From Candidatus Aenigmatarchaeota archaeon (GTDB taxonomy: Archaea; Aenigmatarchaeota; Aenigmatarchaeia; GW2011-AR5), in NCBI GenBank assembly GCA_018304565.1, contig JAGVVX010000007.1:1-39015 (forward strand): DNA of 39,015 nucleotides. The letters are read 5' to 3'. The translations under genes and the position numbers were made by a program. Within the stretch, counting starts at the first letter, position 1. The number at the start of each line of letters is the position of its first letter. Below the pieces are notes generated by a model. That model had not been told where the DNA came from, made no database searches, and was given only the letters and a program-made list of their open reading frames with translations. This document shows, one piece after another, positions 3,577 to 29,201 of this stretch.

Positions 3577-3728
3577 GGGCGCGTAGCTCAGTTTGGATAG
3601 AGCATCAAGCTTTGGCGTGTAAGCCTTCTAAGCTGAGGGCCGCGGGTTCGAAAAGCCCTTTTCTTCCAGAGAAAAACGCTTGCGGAAAAGAAACCGGGAG
3701 AAGGGGTACGAAATTCCCGTCGCGCCCA
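3577..3728 (+). tRNA. tRNA-Arg(TCT) with two introns: ~15 nt inside the anticodon stem (about 3607-3621, position 28/29-29/30) and ~62 nt in the T-loop (about 3653-3714, position 59/60)
   Basis: Acceptor GGGCGCG/CGCGCCC+A. D arm GCTC-AGTTTGGATA-GAGC. After removing 15 nt the anticodon arm is TCAGC-CTTCTAA-GCTGA. Variable region GGGCC. T stem GCGGG...CCCGT with T-loop TTCGAA|T restored only after removing ~62 nt. The spliced length is 75 nt. Confidence 0.7.
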
Positions 3729-3878: not shown

Positions 3879-4640
3879 ATGACAAGAATCATAGCCTGCG
3901 TTTCTGGTAAAGGTGGAGCAGGAAAAACGACGCTTGTCGCCAATATCGGAACAGCAATCGCAGAAATCGGCAAAGACATAATAGTTGTTGATACAAACCT
4001 CACAACACCAAATCTTGGCATTCATCTTGGGGTGCCATTGTACCCAACAACCCTTCATGATGTTCTCAAAGGGCATGCGTCCATCAAAGATGCAATCTAT
4101 GAGCATGATTCTGGCCTCAAAGTAATTCCCGCGGGCCTTTCTATGCGTGACCTGCGCGGCGCAGACATACGTGACCTATCAAATACGCTCCTAGATCTTC
4201 TTGGCAACGCAGAAATAATAATGCTTGACTCGGCTGCCGGCTTAGGCAGGGAAGCACTCACGGCCATGGAAACAGCCGACGAAATTCTTATTGTAACAAA
4301 CCCTGATCTTCCATCGGTTACTGACGCGTTAAAAGCAGCAAGGCTTGCAGAACAAACAGGCACAAAAATCATCGGCGCTGTTATAAACCGCGCAACAGGC
4401 AAGCCGCACGAATTGACAAAATTTGAAATACAAAGCATGCTTGAAAACATAGACATACTGGCAACTATTCCTGAAGATATCAGTGTTCAAAGGGCATTAT
4501 CAAGACGCACGCCTGTAATAAATCACTCTCCAAAATCACCAGCCGCACACAAAATGCGAAGCATTGCAGCACAACTAGTCGGCTATGAGTACAAAATACC
4601 CATACCTTGGTACAGAAGGATTTTACTTCTCAGGCGATAA
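3879..4640 (+). CDS. MinD/ParA-family P-loop ATPase (archaeal MinD-like)
   Basis: Deviant Walker A SGKGGAGKTT at the N-terminus. MinD-like switch regions (DTNL, LDSAAG). 253 aa. Confidence 0.85.
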   Translation: MTRIIACVSGKGGAGKTTLVANIGTAIAEIGKDIIVVDTNLTTPNLGIHLGVPLYPTTLHDVLKGHASIKDAIYEHDSGLKVIPAGLSMRDLRGADIRDLSNTLLDLLGNAEIIMLDSAAGLGREALTAMETADEILIVTNPDLPSVTDALKAARLAEQTGTKIIGAVINRATGKPHELTKFEIQSMLENIDILATIPEDISVQRALSRRTPVINHSPKSPAAHKMRSIAAQLVGYEYKIPIPWYRRILLLRR

Positions 4641-9437: not shown

Positions 9438-10535
9438 CTAACCTTTCATTCTTCCTCTTTTCTTTTGTGTTCTCTGCTTTTCAAACTTCTTGAAGAATTC
9501 CCTTTCCAGATTTTTAAGAGATTGCTGCATGACAGTAACATAATTCCATCCATAAGCCTTTGTCGAGATGAAGGTGCCTAGCTGCGTAGGCAGTTGGGCA
9601 CTCACTGAATATTTTGTTTTGCCGCCCTCTTTCTTATGTCTCTCAACCATAATTTTTAGCGGTTGTATTTCAGTCGCTCTTGATATTTTTTTCAACATGA
9701 TTTCCGCTTCTTTCTGGGTCTTTTCAGCGTGTTCTGCGTCGTTTTTATCTAAACCTGTTATTTGCACATATGCAAATTTCCTTGGCTTGACAAGCATCCG
9801 CAGCACATCCTTGGGAGTTATTATTTTTAACGAGCCGTTTTCGATCAGCACCTCTTCATGCTGCCTTAATTTTTCCAGTATTTGCTCGTTCTTCGCGTTG
9901 GCTTTGAGAACCACCGGTTCCCTCATGATAGCTGTTACAAGTGTTTCATCTATGTTCAGAGATTCTTTGTAACCCCTGTCTTTCATTCTGCCTTCACGCC
10001 CTGCAAATTTCTGTTTGCCTTCGACTATCTTTATGAGTTCTATTGTACCCACCACGCCTACGCATTTTCCGTTGTTTACTACAGGCACCCTTGAAAGATT
10101 TTCGTAAGACATGATATGCTTTACTTTTCCTACGTTATCTTTTTCCTCAACAACAACAGCCTCTTTTCCTTCTAAGCCTGAGTTTATCTTCACGTGCTTG
10201 ATGACATCGTTCTCTGACAAAATTCCGCGCAATTCTGTATCAAAAACCGGCAACGCACGCATATTTGAACCGAGTATAAGCTCTATTGCATCTTCTGTAC
10301 TCGCTTCCGGGGAAATTACAGGACAATAGTTCATGAGGGTAGAAACCTTTGTTGAGGCAGGATCGACCTCTTTTTTCACAATACTTTCGAGTGTTATCAT
10401 TCCAGCCACCTGACTCTTGTTTAGCACAGGCAGCTGGTGAATCTTGTAGTTTTTCATCTTGGCAAGCGCAGATGATACGGGATCATCGACTGAACAAACA
10501 ACAACATTCTTCGCCATTATTTCTTTGACTTTCAT
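9438..10535 (-). CDS. Four-CBS (two Bateman modules) protein with C-terminal RaiA/HPF-like domain
   Basis: Residues 1-250 show four CBS-like repeats (hydrophobic-xx-P-V-hydrophobic cores). Residues ~255-350 follow the beta-alpha-beta-beta-beta-alpha pattern of ribosome hibernation factors (VQITG..., LKIMVERHKK, KYSVSAQL, GTFISTKAYG, SLKNLEREFFKKFEK). Confidence 0.6.
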   Translation of the reverse strand: MKVKEIMAKNVVVCSVDDPVSSALAKMKNYKIHQLPVLNKSQVAGMITLESIVKKEVDPASTKVSTLMNYCPVISPEASTEDAIELILGSNMRALPVFDTELRGILSENDVIKHVKINSGLEGKEAVVVEEKDNVGKVKHIMSYENLSRVPVVNNGKCVGVVGTIELIKIVEGKQKFAGREGRMKDRGYKESLNIDETLVTAIMREPVVLKANAKNEQILEKLRQHEEVLIENGSLKIITPKDVLRMLVKPRKFAYVQITGLDKNDAEHAEKTQKEAEIMLKKISRATEIQPLKIMVERHKKEGGKTKYSVSAQLPTQLGTFISTKAYGWNYVTVMQQSLKNLEREFFKKFEKQRTQKKRGRMKG

Positions 10536-10643
10536 ACTCAGGATACCACCTATCTTTAGATGCTGGAGGAAACCATTAAACCATCAGTAATTACAAGTGG
10601 TTTCCTGGTATCACAACCATCGTTTGAAAACGATGGTTGTGAT
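10536..10643 (-). promoter_or_regulatory. Upstream cassette A (inverted copy of cassette B at 35305-35406), directly abutting the CBS/HPF-like gene start
   Basis: Read toward the gene it has three parts. First, the 16-bp palindrome ATCACAACCATCGTTT/AAACGATGGTTGTGAT plus ACCAGGAAACCAC. Then a ~35-nt variable AT-rich (TATA-like) spacer. Then ATCTAAAGATAGGTGGTATCCTGAGT-ATG. The proximal 26 nt is identical to cassette B, and the distal ~47 nt is near-identical. Confidence 0.7.
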
Positions 10644-10709
10644 GTCAATCATCGTAGCAGATGTATTTCCTCTCTCAGATATAAATAAATTAGTTAGATA
10701 TGAGCTAAA

Positions 10710-13669: not shown

Positions 13670-14392
13670 ATGATTACTCAAAATACACCTCTTCTTAAAA
13701 TAAATGAAGATATTGCAGAGTTCGTTGGCGCTTTAATTGGAGACGGATATATTTACACTAACAAAAACAAATATATCATAGGATTTACTGGAAATCCTAT
13801 CACAGATAAAGAATATTATGAATATCTAAGAAGATTGATAAATATAGCTTGGAAAAAAGAAGTCAAAATAAAATTAAGAGGGAGAGGCATTAGAATTGTT
13901 ATTAATTCTAAGAATATAGTTAATTTTTTGATAAATGAAATACAAATTAAACACGGAATCAATAAAAGCGAATCTGTAGTAATACCAGAAGTCATGACCA
14001 AAGACTGGAGTTTGACTAAATTAGTAATAAGAGGTATTGTTGATACAGATGGCTCTGTTTTTGTTTCTAAAAAGCCCGGCATAGATATGTACCCTTCTAT
14101 AGAAATTACAACATCGAGCCCTGAATTAGCTTTTCAACTAAGGAATATCCTATTAAGCCGTGGTTTTAGAGTTGCGAAAATATGGAGTTATAAATCTAAA
14201 TTAAGTAAAAGAATTTCTTATAAAGTTCCTCTAAACGGACTTGAAAATGTTGGTAAATGGTTAAAAGAAATAGGCTTTTCCAATCCTTACAAACTGAAAA
14301 GAGCAAAAGAAATATGGGATGGGAGGGATTTGAACCCTCGACATTCCCGACGTAACACAAAAGTGTTATGCTCCACGGTTCCTGCTCAGTAG
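13670..14392 (+). CDS. Free-standing double-motif LAGLIDADG homing endonuclease-like protein
   Basis: Two LAGLIDADG motifs (FVGALIGDGYI and VIRGIVDTDGSV). Start taken at the internal ATG (MITQNTPLL). The last ~25 codons read antisense through the 3' part of the convergent tRNA gene. Confidence 0.85.
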   Translation: MITQNTPLLKINEDIAEFVGALIGDGYIYTNKNKYIIGFTGNPITDKEYYEYLRRLINIAWKKEVKIKLRGRGIRIVINSKNIVNFLINEIQIKHGINKSESVVIPEVMTKDWSLTKLVIRGIVDTDGSVFVSKKPGIDMYPSIEITTSSPELAFQLRNILLSRGFRVAKIWSYKSKLSKRISYKVPLNGLENVGKWLKEIGFSNPYKLKRAKEIWDGRDLNPRHSRRNTKVLCSTVPAQ

Positions 14393-14447
14393 GACTTCAG
14401 CTTCACATCTTTCGATCGTGTGCTCTCCCATGCTGAGCTACCATCCC
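14315..14447 (-). tRNA. Intron-containing tRNA, class II-like (long variable arm); tentative Ser(CGA) with ~50-nt intron at 37/38
   Basis: Minus strand: acceptor GGGATGG/CCATCCC+A. D arm GCTC-AGCATGGGA-GAGC. T arm GAGGG-TTCAAAT-CCCTC. The best anticodon arm is ACACG-AT-CGA-A|intron|T-TGTGT followed by a 15-nt variable arm. The isotype is uncertain: the position-26 spacing is awkward, and discriminator A is unusual for Ser. Confidence 0.65.
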
Positions 14448-14869
14448 TAATTAACTTCAAACGCCTTTTCAATACTCTTTCTCATATCAGGGGATATTTC
14501 AAGGCTCCTAAGCTCGTCTTTCGTTATCCACCTGTATTCTGTATGCTCGTTCGGATCTATCTTTACAGCAAAGCTGTCAGCTTGTATTATAAAATCGCTT
14601 TCAACAGAATCCTTTCCGGCATACTTGTAGTAAAACTCGTTGTATTTCTTGATTATTCTGATTTGTAGTTCCGTTTCCTCTAAAAACTCCCTTACAAGTG
14701 CTTCTTCGTCACTCTCGTTTCCTTCAACCCTTCCGCCAGGTATTTCCCAGAGATTAGGCCAAAGTACCCTTTCTTTTGTCCTTTTGACTACTAGCAATTT
14801 CCCTTTTTGGAACAAGGCACCACCTACTATTCTTGTTGCGGAAGCTTCCTTTCCGCAAGCGCTTTGCAC
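14447..14869 (-). CDS. Nudix hydrolase
   Basis: Nudix box GGRVEGNESDEEALVREFLEETEL. The track ORF (to 15016) has an N-terminal extension that is simply a read-through of a tRNA-like gene. The likely start is GTG at ~14869, or a nearby TTG. Confidence 0.75.
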   Translation of the reverse strand: MQSACGKEASATRIVGGALFQKGKLLVVKRTKERVLWPNLWEIPGGRVEGNESDEEALVREFLEETELQIRIIKKYNEFYYKYAGKDSVESDFIIQADSFAVKIDPNEHTEYRWITKDELRSLEISPDMRKSIEKAFEVN

Positions 14870-14890
14870 GTTTATCCTGTGCAAAGGGCT

Positions 14891-14998
14891 TCTCGAACCG
14901 CCGACCCTCACGTCTCTGTCCTGAGATTTATCTGTGTCCCGAAGAACTCCGTTCTTCAAGATAACAGCGTGATGCTCTACCTGCTGAGCTATCGAGGC
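14891..14998 (-). tRNA. tRNA-Asn(GTT)-like 5' portion (acceptor 5' strand through T-loop, with ~48-nt intron at 37/38) lacking any 3' T-stem/acceptor strand; split-tRNA half or relic
   Basis: Minus strand: GCCTCGA-TA-GCTC-AGCAGGTA-GAGC-A-TCACG-CTGTTA|intron|A-CGTGA-GGGTC-GGCGG-TTCGAG, then AAGCCCTTT... The expected CCGCC-TCGAGGC is not found in the following ~450 nt or elsewhere in the window by eye. Confidence 0.55.
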
Positions 14999-27395: not shown

Positions 27396-29033
27396 CTACT
27401 CCATGTCTTCCATGCCTTCGCCGCCCGGCATGCCCGGACCGCCCCTGCCCATGCCGCCGCCTGACTTTGAAGTTATGACGTCATCTATTCTTAGTATCAT
27501 CTCTGCGGCTTCTGTGGCAGACTTTATTGCCTGCGTTTTTATCTTCAGCGGCTCGACAACACCAAACTTTTTCATGTCAGCTATCTCGCCGTTAATGACA
27601 TCGATACCATAGGATTGCTTCCCTTTGTCGTGCTGTGACCTAAGGTTTACAAGTATGTCTATAGGATCCTTGCCTGTGGATTCAGCTAATGTCCTGGGCA
27701 GTATTTCCAGGGCTTCTGCATAGGCGTTTATGGCCAGCTGTTCGCGGCCGCCAACCGTCTCTGCATACTCCTTCATCCTTCGTGCAAGTTCTATCTCAAC
27801 AGCACCGCCGCCATAGACGACCTTGCCAACTTCAACTGCCGCTATGATACCCAGCACAGCGTCATCCATTGCGCGCTTTGCCTCGTCCACAACATGCTCT
27901 GTCCCGCCGCGCACCAGAATGGTTACTGCCTTCGGATCCTTGCATTCCCTTATGAAAATCATTTCTTCTCCTGCTATCTTCTGTTCCTCGACAAGCCCGG
28001 CGAAGCCCAGGTCGTCTTCCGAAAGCTCATCAATATTGCTGACAATATTCGCACCCGTGGCTTTTGCAAGCTTTTCAATGTCGCTTTTCTTTACACGTCT
28101 TGCGGCAACAATGCCGTCCTTCGCCAGATAATGCTGTGCCAAGTCATCAATACCTTTCTGGCAGAAAACAACATTGCATTTCGCCCCTGCGATTTTCTTG
28201 ACCATATCCTTCAGCATCTTTGACTCCTGTTCCAGGAATGCCTGAAGCTGGTCTGGTGATGTTATTCTTATTTCCGCATTAGTTTCAGTTTCCTTTACTT
28301 CCAGTGCACAATCGATCAGTGCAATTTTTGCATTCTTAATCTTCTTGGGCATGTTAGAATGGACAACTTCTTTGTCAATTACAAGGCCTTTTATCAGCTC
28401 CGTGTCGTCTATGCTTCCGCCCTGTTTTTTCTCTATCTTTATGTTGTCCTTGTCTATCGTCCCTTCATTGTCAGAAACAATCTTTACCGCTTCAAAAGCA
28501 AGTTTTGCCAGGCCCTCTTTTGCAGTTTCGCTTCCTTTGCCCGTCATCGCCGTCATTGCTATCTTTTCAAGCGTGTCCCTGTCATTGATGTCTACAGTCT
28601 CGCTGATATCGTTGAGCAGTTCCAGCGCCTTCAGTTTCGCCAGCCTGTAGCCGCGTACAATCATTGTCGGGTGAATTTCCTGCTCCAGCAAGCCTTCTGC
28701 CTTCTTGAGAAGCTCGCCAGCAATTATAACCGCAGTCGTTGTACCGTCCCCTACCTCGTCTTCCTGGGTCTTTGCAACCTCAACAATCATCTTTGCTGCC
28801 GGGTGCTCTATCTCCATTTCTTTAAGAATCGTGGCGCCGTCGTTTGTTATCGTCACGTCGCCTATAGAATCAACAAGCATCTTGTCCATGCCCTTAGGGC
28901 CTAATGTAGTCCGTATGCTTTCAGCTACTGCTTTAGCTGCCATTATGTTCCTTGACTGTGCATCCTTGCCTGTACTGCGCAGGGTGCCCTCCGGCAAAAT
29001 GAATATCGGCTGCCCGCCAAATTGTCCTACCAT
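27396..29033 (-). CDS. ths: Thermosome subunit (group II chaperonin)
   Basis: 545 aa. GDGTTT ATP-binding motif, [16 protein letters not shown]-like segment, G/M-rich C-terminal tail. GGAGGA SD-like sequence upstream. Confidence 0.95.
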
Positions 29034-29201
29034 CTCAAATTCCTCCTCTACAAGTCATTTTCTACATCTTGCACAAACTGTGCATGGAAGTATACGACCT
29101 AAAAGCTTAAAAATGTTACTTTTCCGCAAGTTTTAAGAGTGTAGGAACCATTCTACAAGCATGGCAAGCCACATGGAGACGGGACGAAATATACAGCCGC
29201 C

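Follow-up and report, generated by a model that had tools for sequence, protein, structure and literature searches.

Two tRNA genes of an aenigmatarchaeal contig

The stretch of DNA analysed here, called the window below, comprises the 39,015 nucleotides at positions 1 to 39,015 (forward strand) of contig JAGVVX010000007.1 of the Candidatus Aenigmatarchaeota assembly GCA_018304565.1. The genome (G000) is that of a DPANN archaeon of ~0.8 Mb (811 kb) with 44% G+C, and it was compared with two congeners, G001, a Candidatus Aenigmatarchaeota groundwater metagenome-assembled genome, and G002. On the plus strand the window carries a tRNA-Arg(TCT) gene with two introns, one in the anticodon stem and one in the T loop. 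On the minus strand it carries a tRNA-Asn(GTT) gene with a canonical intron, which ends inside a second intron-like sequence in the T loop. The subject of this study is the relation between the two T-loop sequences, which an original prediction, made from the letters alone, had proposed to be homologous. Coordinates of the features are collected in Table 1.

Table 1. Features of the window, and transposase genes elsewhere in the same genome (coordinates given with contig).
Feature	Position	Strand	Remarks
tRNA-Arg(TCT) gene	3577-3728	+	exons 3577-3607, 3623-3652 and 3715-3728; spliced form folds in ARAGORN
15-nt intron, anticodon stem, 29/30	3608-3622	+	removal joins TCA and GC to TCAGC, which pairs with GCTGA
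62-nt T-loop intron of tRNA-Arg, 59/60	3653-3714	+	bulge-helix-bulge frame; absent from the syntenic G001 and G002 orthologues
Conserved module, Arg copy	3653-3688	+	covariance model 55.4 bits; pattern match
tRNA splicing endonuclease EndA, 202 aa	11001-11609	-	Pfam PF01974 98 bits, PF02778 56 bits
tRNA-Asn(GTT) gene, 3'-truncated	14835-14998	-	exon 1 14998-14962, exon 2 14913-14892
Canonical 48-nt intron of tRNA-Asn	14961-14914	-	
T-loop intron remnant of tRNA-Asn	14891-14835	-	
Conserved module, Asn copy	14850-14891	-	P1 AAGC/GCTT, tip GCACAGGATAAACGTGC, tail GCGGAAA; 51.3 bits
GGAAGCTTCCGCAAC, final intron bases ahead of the breakpoint	14835-14849	-	alignment with loci L159 and L022
Y1 transposase gene	C26:20716-21054	+	flanks CCACCGC...GCGGTGG
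Y1 transposase gene	C60:18063-18407	-	flanks CCACCGC...GCGGTGG
Y1 transposase gene	C16:17786-18148	+	flanks CCACCGC...GCGGTGG

The two T-loop sequences are copies of one module

Both sequences begin immediately 3' of T-loop position 59, and both consist of AAGCCCTTT, a hairpin and AAA(A/G)CGCTTGCGGAAA. The Arg copy reads TTCGAA (3647-3652) followed by AAGCCCTTT-TCTTCCAGAGA-AAAACGCTTGCGGAAA; its hairpin, TCTT CCAG AGA, is set inside T and A runs, and AAAACGCTTGCGGAAA ends at 3688. The Asn copy reads TTCGAG (14897-14892) followed by AAGCCCTTT-GCACAGGATAAACGTGC-AAAGCGCTTGCGGAAA, with the hairpin GCAC-AGGATAAAC-GTGC and AAAGCGCTTGCGGAAA ending at 14850. The original prediction had described these elements correctly in letters and coordinates, including the different hairpin at the same position.

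The likeness withstands comparison with shuffled controls. The composite pattern AAGCCCTTTN{5,30}CGCTTGCGGAAA matches the window twice, at the Arg and Asn copies, and has no match in 100 dinucleotide-preserving shuffles. In local alignment, the second block has 18 of 20 positions identical between Arg and Asn (z = 7.7 against shuffles). A covariance model trained on 56 copies from other genomes and on both window copies gives 55.4 bits to the Arg copy (3649-3692) and 51.3 bits to the Asn copy (14846-14895), scores that are partly circular because both copies are in the training set. The gap to the rest of the window, where the next match reaches 14.7 bits, is not circular. Chance likeness is ruled out by the shuffles, the alignment score and this gap. 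The Arg and Asn sequences are homologous copies of one multi-copy intron family with a conserved, covarying core, and the homology put forward by the original prediction is thereby confirmed.

The likeness is limited to a module of ~36-42 nt, and the two introns show no relation in their 3' parts. The Asn copy is most closely related not to the Arg(TCT) intron but to the T-loop and 38/39 introns of a tRNA-Arg(GCG) gene on contig C1, in which the module is identical but for one base in the hairpin loop.

The 14.7-bit match is a tail-only piece, CTTAAAACTTGCGGAAAAGTA, at 29117-29137 on the minus strand. It has no hairpin, lies ~85 nt upstream of an open reading frame (ORF; 27396-29033, minus strand) and is probably a chance match or a remnant.

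Structure and covariation of the module

The core of the module is composed of a 4-bp helix P1 (N1N2GC/GCN2'N1'), a C.C mismatch, a second helix P2 (CTTT/AAAG) with a variable tip, and the tail GCGGAAA(R). Its 5' edge is the 5' splice site or lies a few bases off. In the Arg copy, AAGC (3653-3656) pairs with GCTT (3678-3681) to form P1, with the C mismatch, the CTTTTCTT/AGAGAAAA hairpin and the tail GCGGAAA at 3682-3688.

P1 is found in six combinations (AAGC/GCTT, TGGC/GCCA, AGGC/GCCT, TAGC/GCTA, CGGC/GCCG and CAGC/GCTG). Its two variable pairs covary, and neither is ever unpaired in 56 distinct copies: pair 5-39 is AU in 35, UA in 11, CG in 9 and GU in 1, and pair 6-38 is AU in 41, GC in 14 and GU in 1. 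Pairing is present in 97% of cells; shuffles give 82%, and sliding the partner gives 40-60%. It likewise holds in 20 T-loop introns. This covariation is real because the search pattern left the 5' strand of P1 unconstrained; the copies are related by descent, so the counts are not independent events.

The 122 copies have 96 different hairpin tips, almost always perfectly paired. Their 883 pairs comprise 835 Watson-Crick, 16 G.U, 13 A.C and 19 other pairs. The tail GCGGAAA is invariant, and the length of its A run tracks the T run of P2. This purine tail mirrors P2 significantly (0.48 versus 0.33), with the relation fading 1-2 nt beyond the GA(n)G unit, and it may reflect the descent of two subfamilies. 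A downstream partner of the conserved GCTTGCGG is weakly enriched, with stems of at least 7 bp in 35 copies and ~22 expected. Some copies also have a downstream partner helix for the conserved GCTTGCGGAA, for example GCAAGC or TTCCGCAA, and this too is weakly enriched overall.

Predicted splicing and the EndA endonuclease

Splicing was judged from sequence and predicted folds only. The unspliced tRNA-Arg(TCT) gene escapes both ARAGORN and Rfam, and taking out its 15-nt and 62-nt introns leaves a clean 75-nt tRNA-Arg(tct) cloverleaf in ARAGORN. Predicted splicing likewise restores canonical tRNAs for Asn(GTT) (73 nt, from the complete gene of locus L159, described below) and Arg(GCG) (74 nt), and ARAGORN finds none of the three in unspliced form. 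In the whole window, ARAGORN finds one tRNA gene; Rfam finds one that is real and, falsely, a short version of the Asn gene. The 15-nt intron of tRNA-Arg(TCT) is unrelated to the module and identical in G001.

The Arg T-loop intron has the frame of a motif of bulge-helix-bulge (BHB) type, with two 3-nt bulges, AA^A and AT^T (the caret marks the junction), a 4-bp central helix, TTCG/CGAA, and flanking helices at the exon-intron junctions, the outer one being the T stem, GCGGG/CCCGT. In the T-loop copies generally, the T stem would serve as the outer helix, and T-loop bases 54-57 (TTCG or TTCA) would pair with CGAA or TGAA near the intron 3' end to form the 4-bp central helix. The first bulge would then hold positions 58-59 and the first intron base, and the second the last two intron bases and T60. 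At the 5' splice site the inner helix may be P1 or, in longer introns, GCC paired with GGC of the intron 3' end. The single EndA of the genome would cut at the two bulges, after which the exons would be united by a ligase.

Counted over the 20 T-loop introns, pairing reaches 100% of cells in the T stem, which also covaries, and 96% in the central helix. The latter follows the sequence of the T loop, TTCG occurring with CGAA and TTCA with TGAA, which argues for a constraint at the RNA level and against target duplication. The classical inner helix, GCC of the module paired with GGC near the intron 3' end, occurs in roughly three out of four of these introns; the shortest, which consist of the module and 6-8 bases, lack it. 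P1 is present in all 20. In the minimal introns it is the sole helix adjoining the 5' splice site, and it could serve there as the inner helix of a relaxed BHB motif. A further 42 copies stand in a pyrimidine-U-NNN-purine context resembling position 37/38 of the anticodon loop, which within a 7-nt loop is equivalent to 59/60, and in many of them sequence downstream of the intron complements the closing stem.

EndA, encoded in the window itself, would be the enzyme expected to cut the module introns. No paralogue or second subunit was found by tblastn in G000 or G001, and the EndA proteins of the two genomes are 99.5% identical. The genome has this single EndA gene although it needs cuts at D-loop, anticodon-stem and T-loop positions.

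Distribution of the module family

The search for further copies, suggested with the original prediction, found 27 strong copies, 12 of them in G000 and 15 in G001, and every one lies inside a tRNA gene in sense orientation. In G000 the hosts are the genes for tRNA-Arg(TCT), Asn(GTT), Arg(GCG), which has three copies, Asp(GTC) and at least five other tRNAs. The copies lie in the D loop, at 37/38 (tRNA-Asp), at 38/39 and at 59/60. Related introns are found in different isoacceptors and at different positions within one genome, and the family is not bound to the T loop. Looser variants share the same architecture, with P1 TAAC/GTTA on contigs C63 and C28 and AAGG/CCTT on C2.

Beyond the genus, a strict pattern was found in 10 of 41 genomes of the order, and its reversed control gave no match. 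In a search of 185,579 species genomes, the matches listed are mostly from Aenigmatarchaeota, Micrarchaeota and other DPANN archaea, and a minority are chance matches in bacteria, such as a recurring Rhizobium site. Several 16S and 23S rRNA inserts of related genomes (L026, L017) contain the module too, and one 16S site has a perfect BHB frame, TTAG/CTAA with AGGCC/GGCCT. No rRNA copy was found in this assembly, all of whose copies are in tRNA genes.

Two loci deserve mention in their own right. The tRNA-Arg(GCG) gene (C1 ~10437-10694, plus strand, locus L005) holds its three module copies in the D loop, at 38/39 and at 59/60, and the last two are identical. Its anticodon-loop exon GCTTGCGGA is the same as the GCTTGCGGA of the module, so that exon and intron form a 9-nt direct repeat around the 38/39 copy. 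A D-loop intron with the TGGC variant of the module is found in G000 (C38 ~4300-4453, minus strand) and in G001 (C4 ~251000-251129, minus strand). It is followed by tandem GAACTGGT-like repeats whose number and order differ between the two genomes.

Turnover between close relatives

G000 and G001 are ~94% identical over 569 kb, and the presence of module introns differs between them at orthologous sites. At 59/60 of tRNA-Arg(TCT), G000 has the module intron; G001 has none there and instead an unrelated intron at 53/54, and G002 has no T-arm intron. The Arg intron is also absent from six of seven other orthologues of the family, the seventh (G020) having an unrelated insert at about the same place. 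The reverse is seen in tRNA-Trp(CCA) and tRNA-Gly(GCC), where G001 has a module intron at 59/60 and G000 an intact TTCGAA^TCC site. At 37/38 of tRNA-Asp, G000 has a module intron and G001 an unrelated 117-nt intron. Comparison of the filled and empty sites of Trp and Arg reveals no target-site duplication.

Two further sites differ in the hairpin tip. At 59/60 of tRNA-Asn, G000 and the metagenome locus L159 have a GCAC...GTGC tip, while G001 has the CTTAAAAG tip in an otherwise identical intron, and G002 also has the CTTAAAAG tip. A tRNA gene on contig C7 shows the reverse at its 59/60 site, with a CTTCTTT-type tip in G000 and a GCAC-type tip in G001. The GCAC-type tip is multi-copy in both genomes. 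The simplest account may be an exchange of tips via the conserved core, by gene conversion or by re-invasion.

Module introns are rapidly gained, lost and replaced between sister species. We infer the direction of the Trp and Gly changes. The original prediction had read the two introns in terms of the intron-transposition model for archaeal tRNA introns, and the sites filled in one genome and empty in the other, Arg(TCT) in G000 and Trp and Gly in G001, lend support to that reading.

Two of these genes show inserts of other kinds. The tRNA-Gly(GCC) orthologues (G000 C63:10340-10530, minus strand; G001 C3 ~57280-57530, minus strand) have two different inserts. G000 has a 19-nt insert ahead of the T stem that is absent from G001, and the T-loop module intron of G001 is absent from G000. 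The Arg(TCT) orthologues of G001 (L148), G022 (L150) and G005 (L154) share an unrelated ~30-nt intron at 53/54, between T stem and T loop, which reads AAAT(T/C)AT(T/G)GAG...CCATAAT/GATTCGCGAA and is not present in the window.

Origin and spread of the module introns

We consider it probable that both T-loop sequences belong to a single family of small archaeal BHB introns with a conserved 5' module in common. According to this explanation, the Arg(TCT) copy would have been gained in this lineage after its split from the congeners. The Asn copy would be older and genus-wide, its tip having been replaced by the tip of a different member of the family from the same genome. Spread would, in the simplest reading, proceed by copying between structurally equivalent 7-nt loops, and copying from T loop to T loop would require no change of the intron 3' end. 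Gene conversion between dispersed copies, with the conserved core as homology, may provide an added route.

Several observations weigh against this explanation. In other genomes, 14 of 116 copies start inside the stop codon of an ORF (T^AAGCC as TAA in 10 cases, TAGCC in 3), and 4 of 116 start 0-2 nt after a tRNA discriminator base. The stop codons close open frames of 70-1064 codons; loci with copies of these two kinds include L041, L044, L062, L066, L070, L075, L097, L111, L122 and L139. Such copies lie outside introns, so that what moves may be the hairpin module and not a T-loop intron as such. A near-identical donor of the Arg T-loop intron was not found; its best full-length relatives are 77-88% identical and reside in other genomes. 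The hairpins are near-perfect, with G.U pairs no commoner than A.C pairs, which fits templated palindromes better than long-evolved RNA helices, though the wobble asymmetry alone is uninformative. A requirement for structure only would leave the conservation of the core primary sequence across phyla unexplained. Finally, P1 and the GCC/GGC helix are mutually exclusive, so the conformation that is cut is uncertain. Neither stop-codon nor tRNA-trailer copies occur in G000 or G001.

Alternatively, the module might be a repeat at the DNA level, in the form of a short mobile palindrome like the bacterial repetitive extragenic palindromic (REP) sequences or miniature inverted-repeat transposable elements (MITEs). 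Such an element could land anywhere in the chromosome and be kept in tRNA and rRNA genes only where EndA can clean the transcript, and intron transposition would be a by-product of it, not a process at the RNA level. Besides the near-perfect hairpins and the copies at stop codons and trailers, the diversity of the tips, which are exchanged cleanly between orthologues, would suit such a repeat, and the genome has three genes for Y1 (IS200/IS605-type) transposases. However, these genes are flanked by a different hairpin (Table 1), and a link between them and the module is ruled out by these unrelated flanks. REP and MITE elements are recognized by a transposase flanked by the same hairpin and by target-site duplication, and neither is seen here, the filled and empty sites of Trp and Arg lacking any duplication. 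In addition, the intron 3' end is complementary to the host loop (TTCA with TGAA) rather than a repeat of it, the G000 and G001 copies are confined to tRNA genes in one orientation, and viral contigs of IMG/VR contain no copies, only four chance matches. We regard a DNA repeat as possible but doubtful. The Y1 gene on C60 lies ~300 bp from a module-bearing tRNA gene, with an 11-N gap between the two.

Still less likely, in our view, is a module conserved for its function and not through recent copying. It would be an RNA signal that is bound by a sequence-specific factor and whose 5' edge marks a site of cleavage or processing, namely the 5' splice site in tRNA and rRNA and, elsewhere, a tRNA or mRNA 3' end, or else a folding clamp that presents the splice site. 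The primary sequence of the core persists from one DPANN phylum to another, with the hairpin tip left to vary, and the 5' edge falls at the 5' splice site, at ORF stop codons and at tRNA discriminator bases. P1 as the only helix at the 5' splice site of minimal introns, and the tail whose A-run length tracks P2, would also be in keeping with such a signal. However, a partner protein has not been identified, and orthologous tRNAs exist with or without the module, which makes it dispensable for the host RNA. The tail correlation is possibly due to the descent of two subfamilies, and the downstream partner of GCTTGCGG is enriched only weakly.

A more far-reaching reading would take the module as a portable, self-folding splice-site cassette, a mobile element of DPANN archaea that, outside structural RNA genes, also marks where RNAs end, at stop codons and in tRNA trailers. 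P1 would be the inner helix of the BHB, and the purine tail would contribute to the strand pairing with the Y-U start of any 7-nt tRNA loop. An element of ~45 nt could in this way make almost any 7-nt tRNA loop cleavable by EndA. We consider this reading unlikely.

The tRNA-Asn gene is truncated, not split

The original prediction held that the Asn gene once had a T-loop intron, or still has one in trans. In the window, the gene passes from the first six bases of the T loop (TTCGAG) into the module and stops at 14835. An exact 48-nt search of metagenome contigs gave no match, and a second pattern led to L159, a contig near-identical to the window. L159 has the same module with the same hairpin tip and a complete Asn gene, which in spliced form is a clean 73-nt tRNA-Asn(gtt) in ARAGORN; the window form gives no tRNA. 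After the module, L159 reads AAGCAAGCAAAGGCACGAAAT^TCCGCCTCGGGGCG and continues into the same downstream ORF as the window, an ORF that is also found in G001 and G002 and is Nudix-like by eye only. The Asn gene is complete in these two congeners as well. A complete gene with the 59/60 intron in L159, G001 and G002 bears out the first half of the claim.

The missing part can be traced. Starting at the G of GCGGAAAG, 45 nt of L159 that hold the intron 3' end, the 3' strand of the T stem and the 3' strand of the acceptor stem are replaced by 14 nt in the window. These 14 nt are GAAGCTTCCGCAAC, as in G002 and in the C1 intron, and in G002 (L024) GAAGCTTCCGCAAC is followed by the missing 37 nt. The break thus takes out 36-45 nt within an otherwise collinear region. 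It looks like a ~37-nt deletion from an allele of the G002 type, or an assembly error in a mixed population, by which the gene in this contig would have lost its intron 3' end and last exon.

The second half of the claim is not supported. A split tRNA, with the Asn element as its 5' part and a 3' piece transcribed from another place and attached in trans via the intron-like sequence, is suggested by the end of the gene inside the T-loop intron and by an assembly with no other tRNA-Asn 5' part, yet we hold it to be highly improbable and set it aside because no CCGCCTCGAGGC-like 3' piece exists in the whole 811-kb assembly and the gene is complete in L159, G001 and G002. A split tRNA gene is recognized by a separate 3' piece with a complementary leader; here the gene is contiguous in all three relatives and runs on to the same ORF, with the break in the middle of a collinear region. 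The Asn gene reads as an ordinary two-intron gene, not a split tRNA. About 390 nt downstream of it lies a second tRNA gene (14315-14447, minus strand; Rfam 43 bits), which has a ~58-nt insert without the module.

Relation to known systems

How archaeal protein-spliced introns are gained has been an open question since the reports on Thermoproteales, with no known mechanism or sequence signature. The module family offers test material for it, with a conserved covarying signature, pairs of filled and empty sites at ~94% identity and a single candidate EndA. The new details here are the covariation of P1 and the turnover of module introns within a genus. A practical consequence is that standard tRNA finders overlook most tRNA genes of such genomes.

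Several systems resemble the module in part. Bacterial REP/REPIN repeats, which are mobilised by RAYT (Y1) transposases, are likewise short and dispersed palindromes of imperfect pairing whose flanks are conserved, and a genome holds many of them, some just after genes. Unlike them, the module does not flank Y1 genes and has no target duplication, and its copies here are confined to tRNA genes with a target-complementary 3' end. The small hairpin BHB introns of archaeal 16S and 23S rRNA come closer, as the same module is present in rRNA inserts of related genomes, while the copies of this assembly are in tRNA genes only.

ARMAN-2 and other DPANN archaea are described as having many D-loop and T-loop tRNA introns, relaxed BHB motifs and an EndA of broad specificity (PMC3239211, PMC5829648, PMC12397907). 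An alpha4-type EndA with an extra loop is said there to go with more disrupted tRNA genes in DPANN (PMC5829648). These papers treat the enzyme and the intron positions, and their searched passages contain no conserved intron module. The present genome has a single 202-aa EndA gene. No paper containing the module motif was found in a search limited to open-access literature.

The closest described phenomenon is the large-scale transposition of tRNA introns in Thermoproteales (Fujishima et al. 2010; Sugahara et al. 2008), in which transposed tRNA introns differ between close species (PMC4090602; bioRxiv 10.64898/2026.10.13.758758). It is of the same kind, with BHB introns copied between tRNA genes. 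Unlike the Thermoproteales introns, those described here belong to a DPANN lineage and share a defined, covarying hairpin module which is kept across phyla, which is also present in rRNA introns, and which in other genomes is found outside introns as well.

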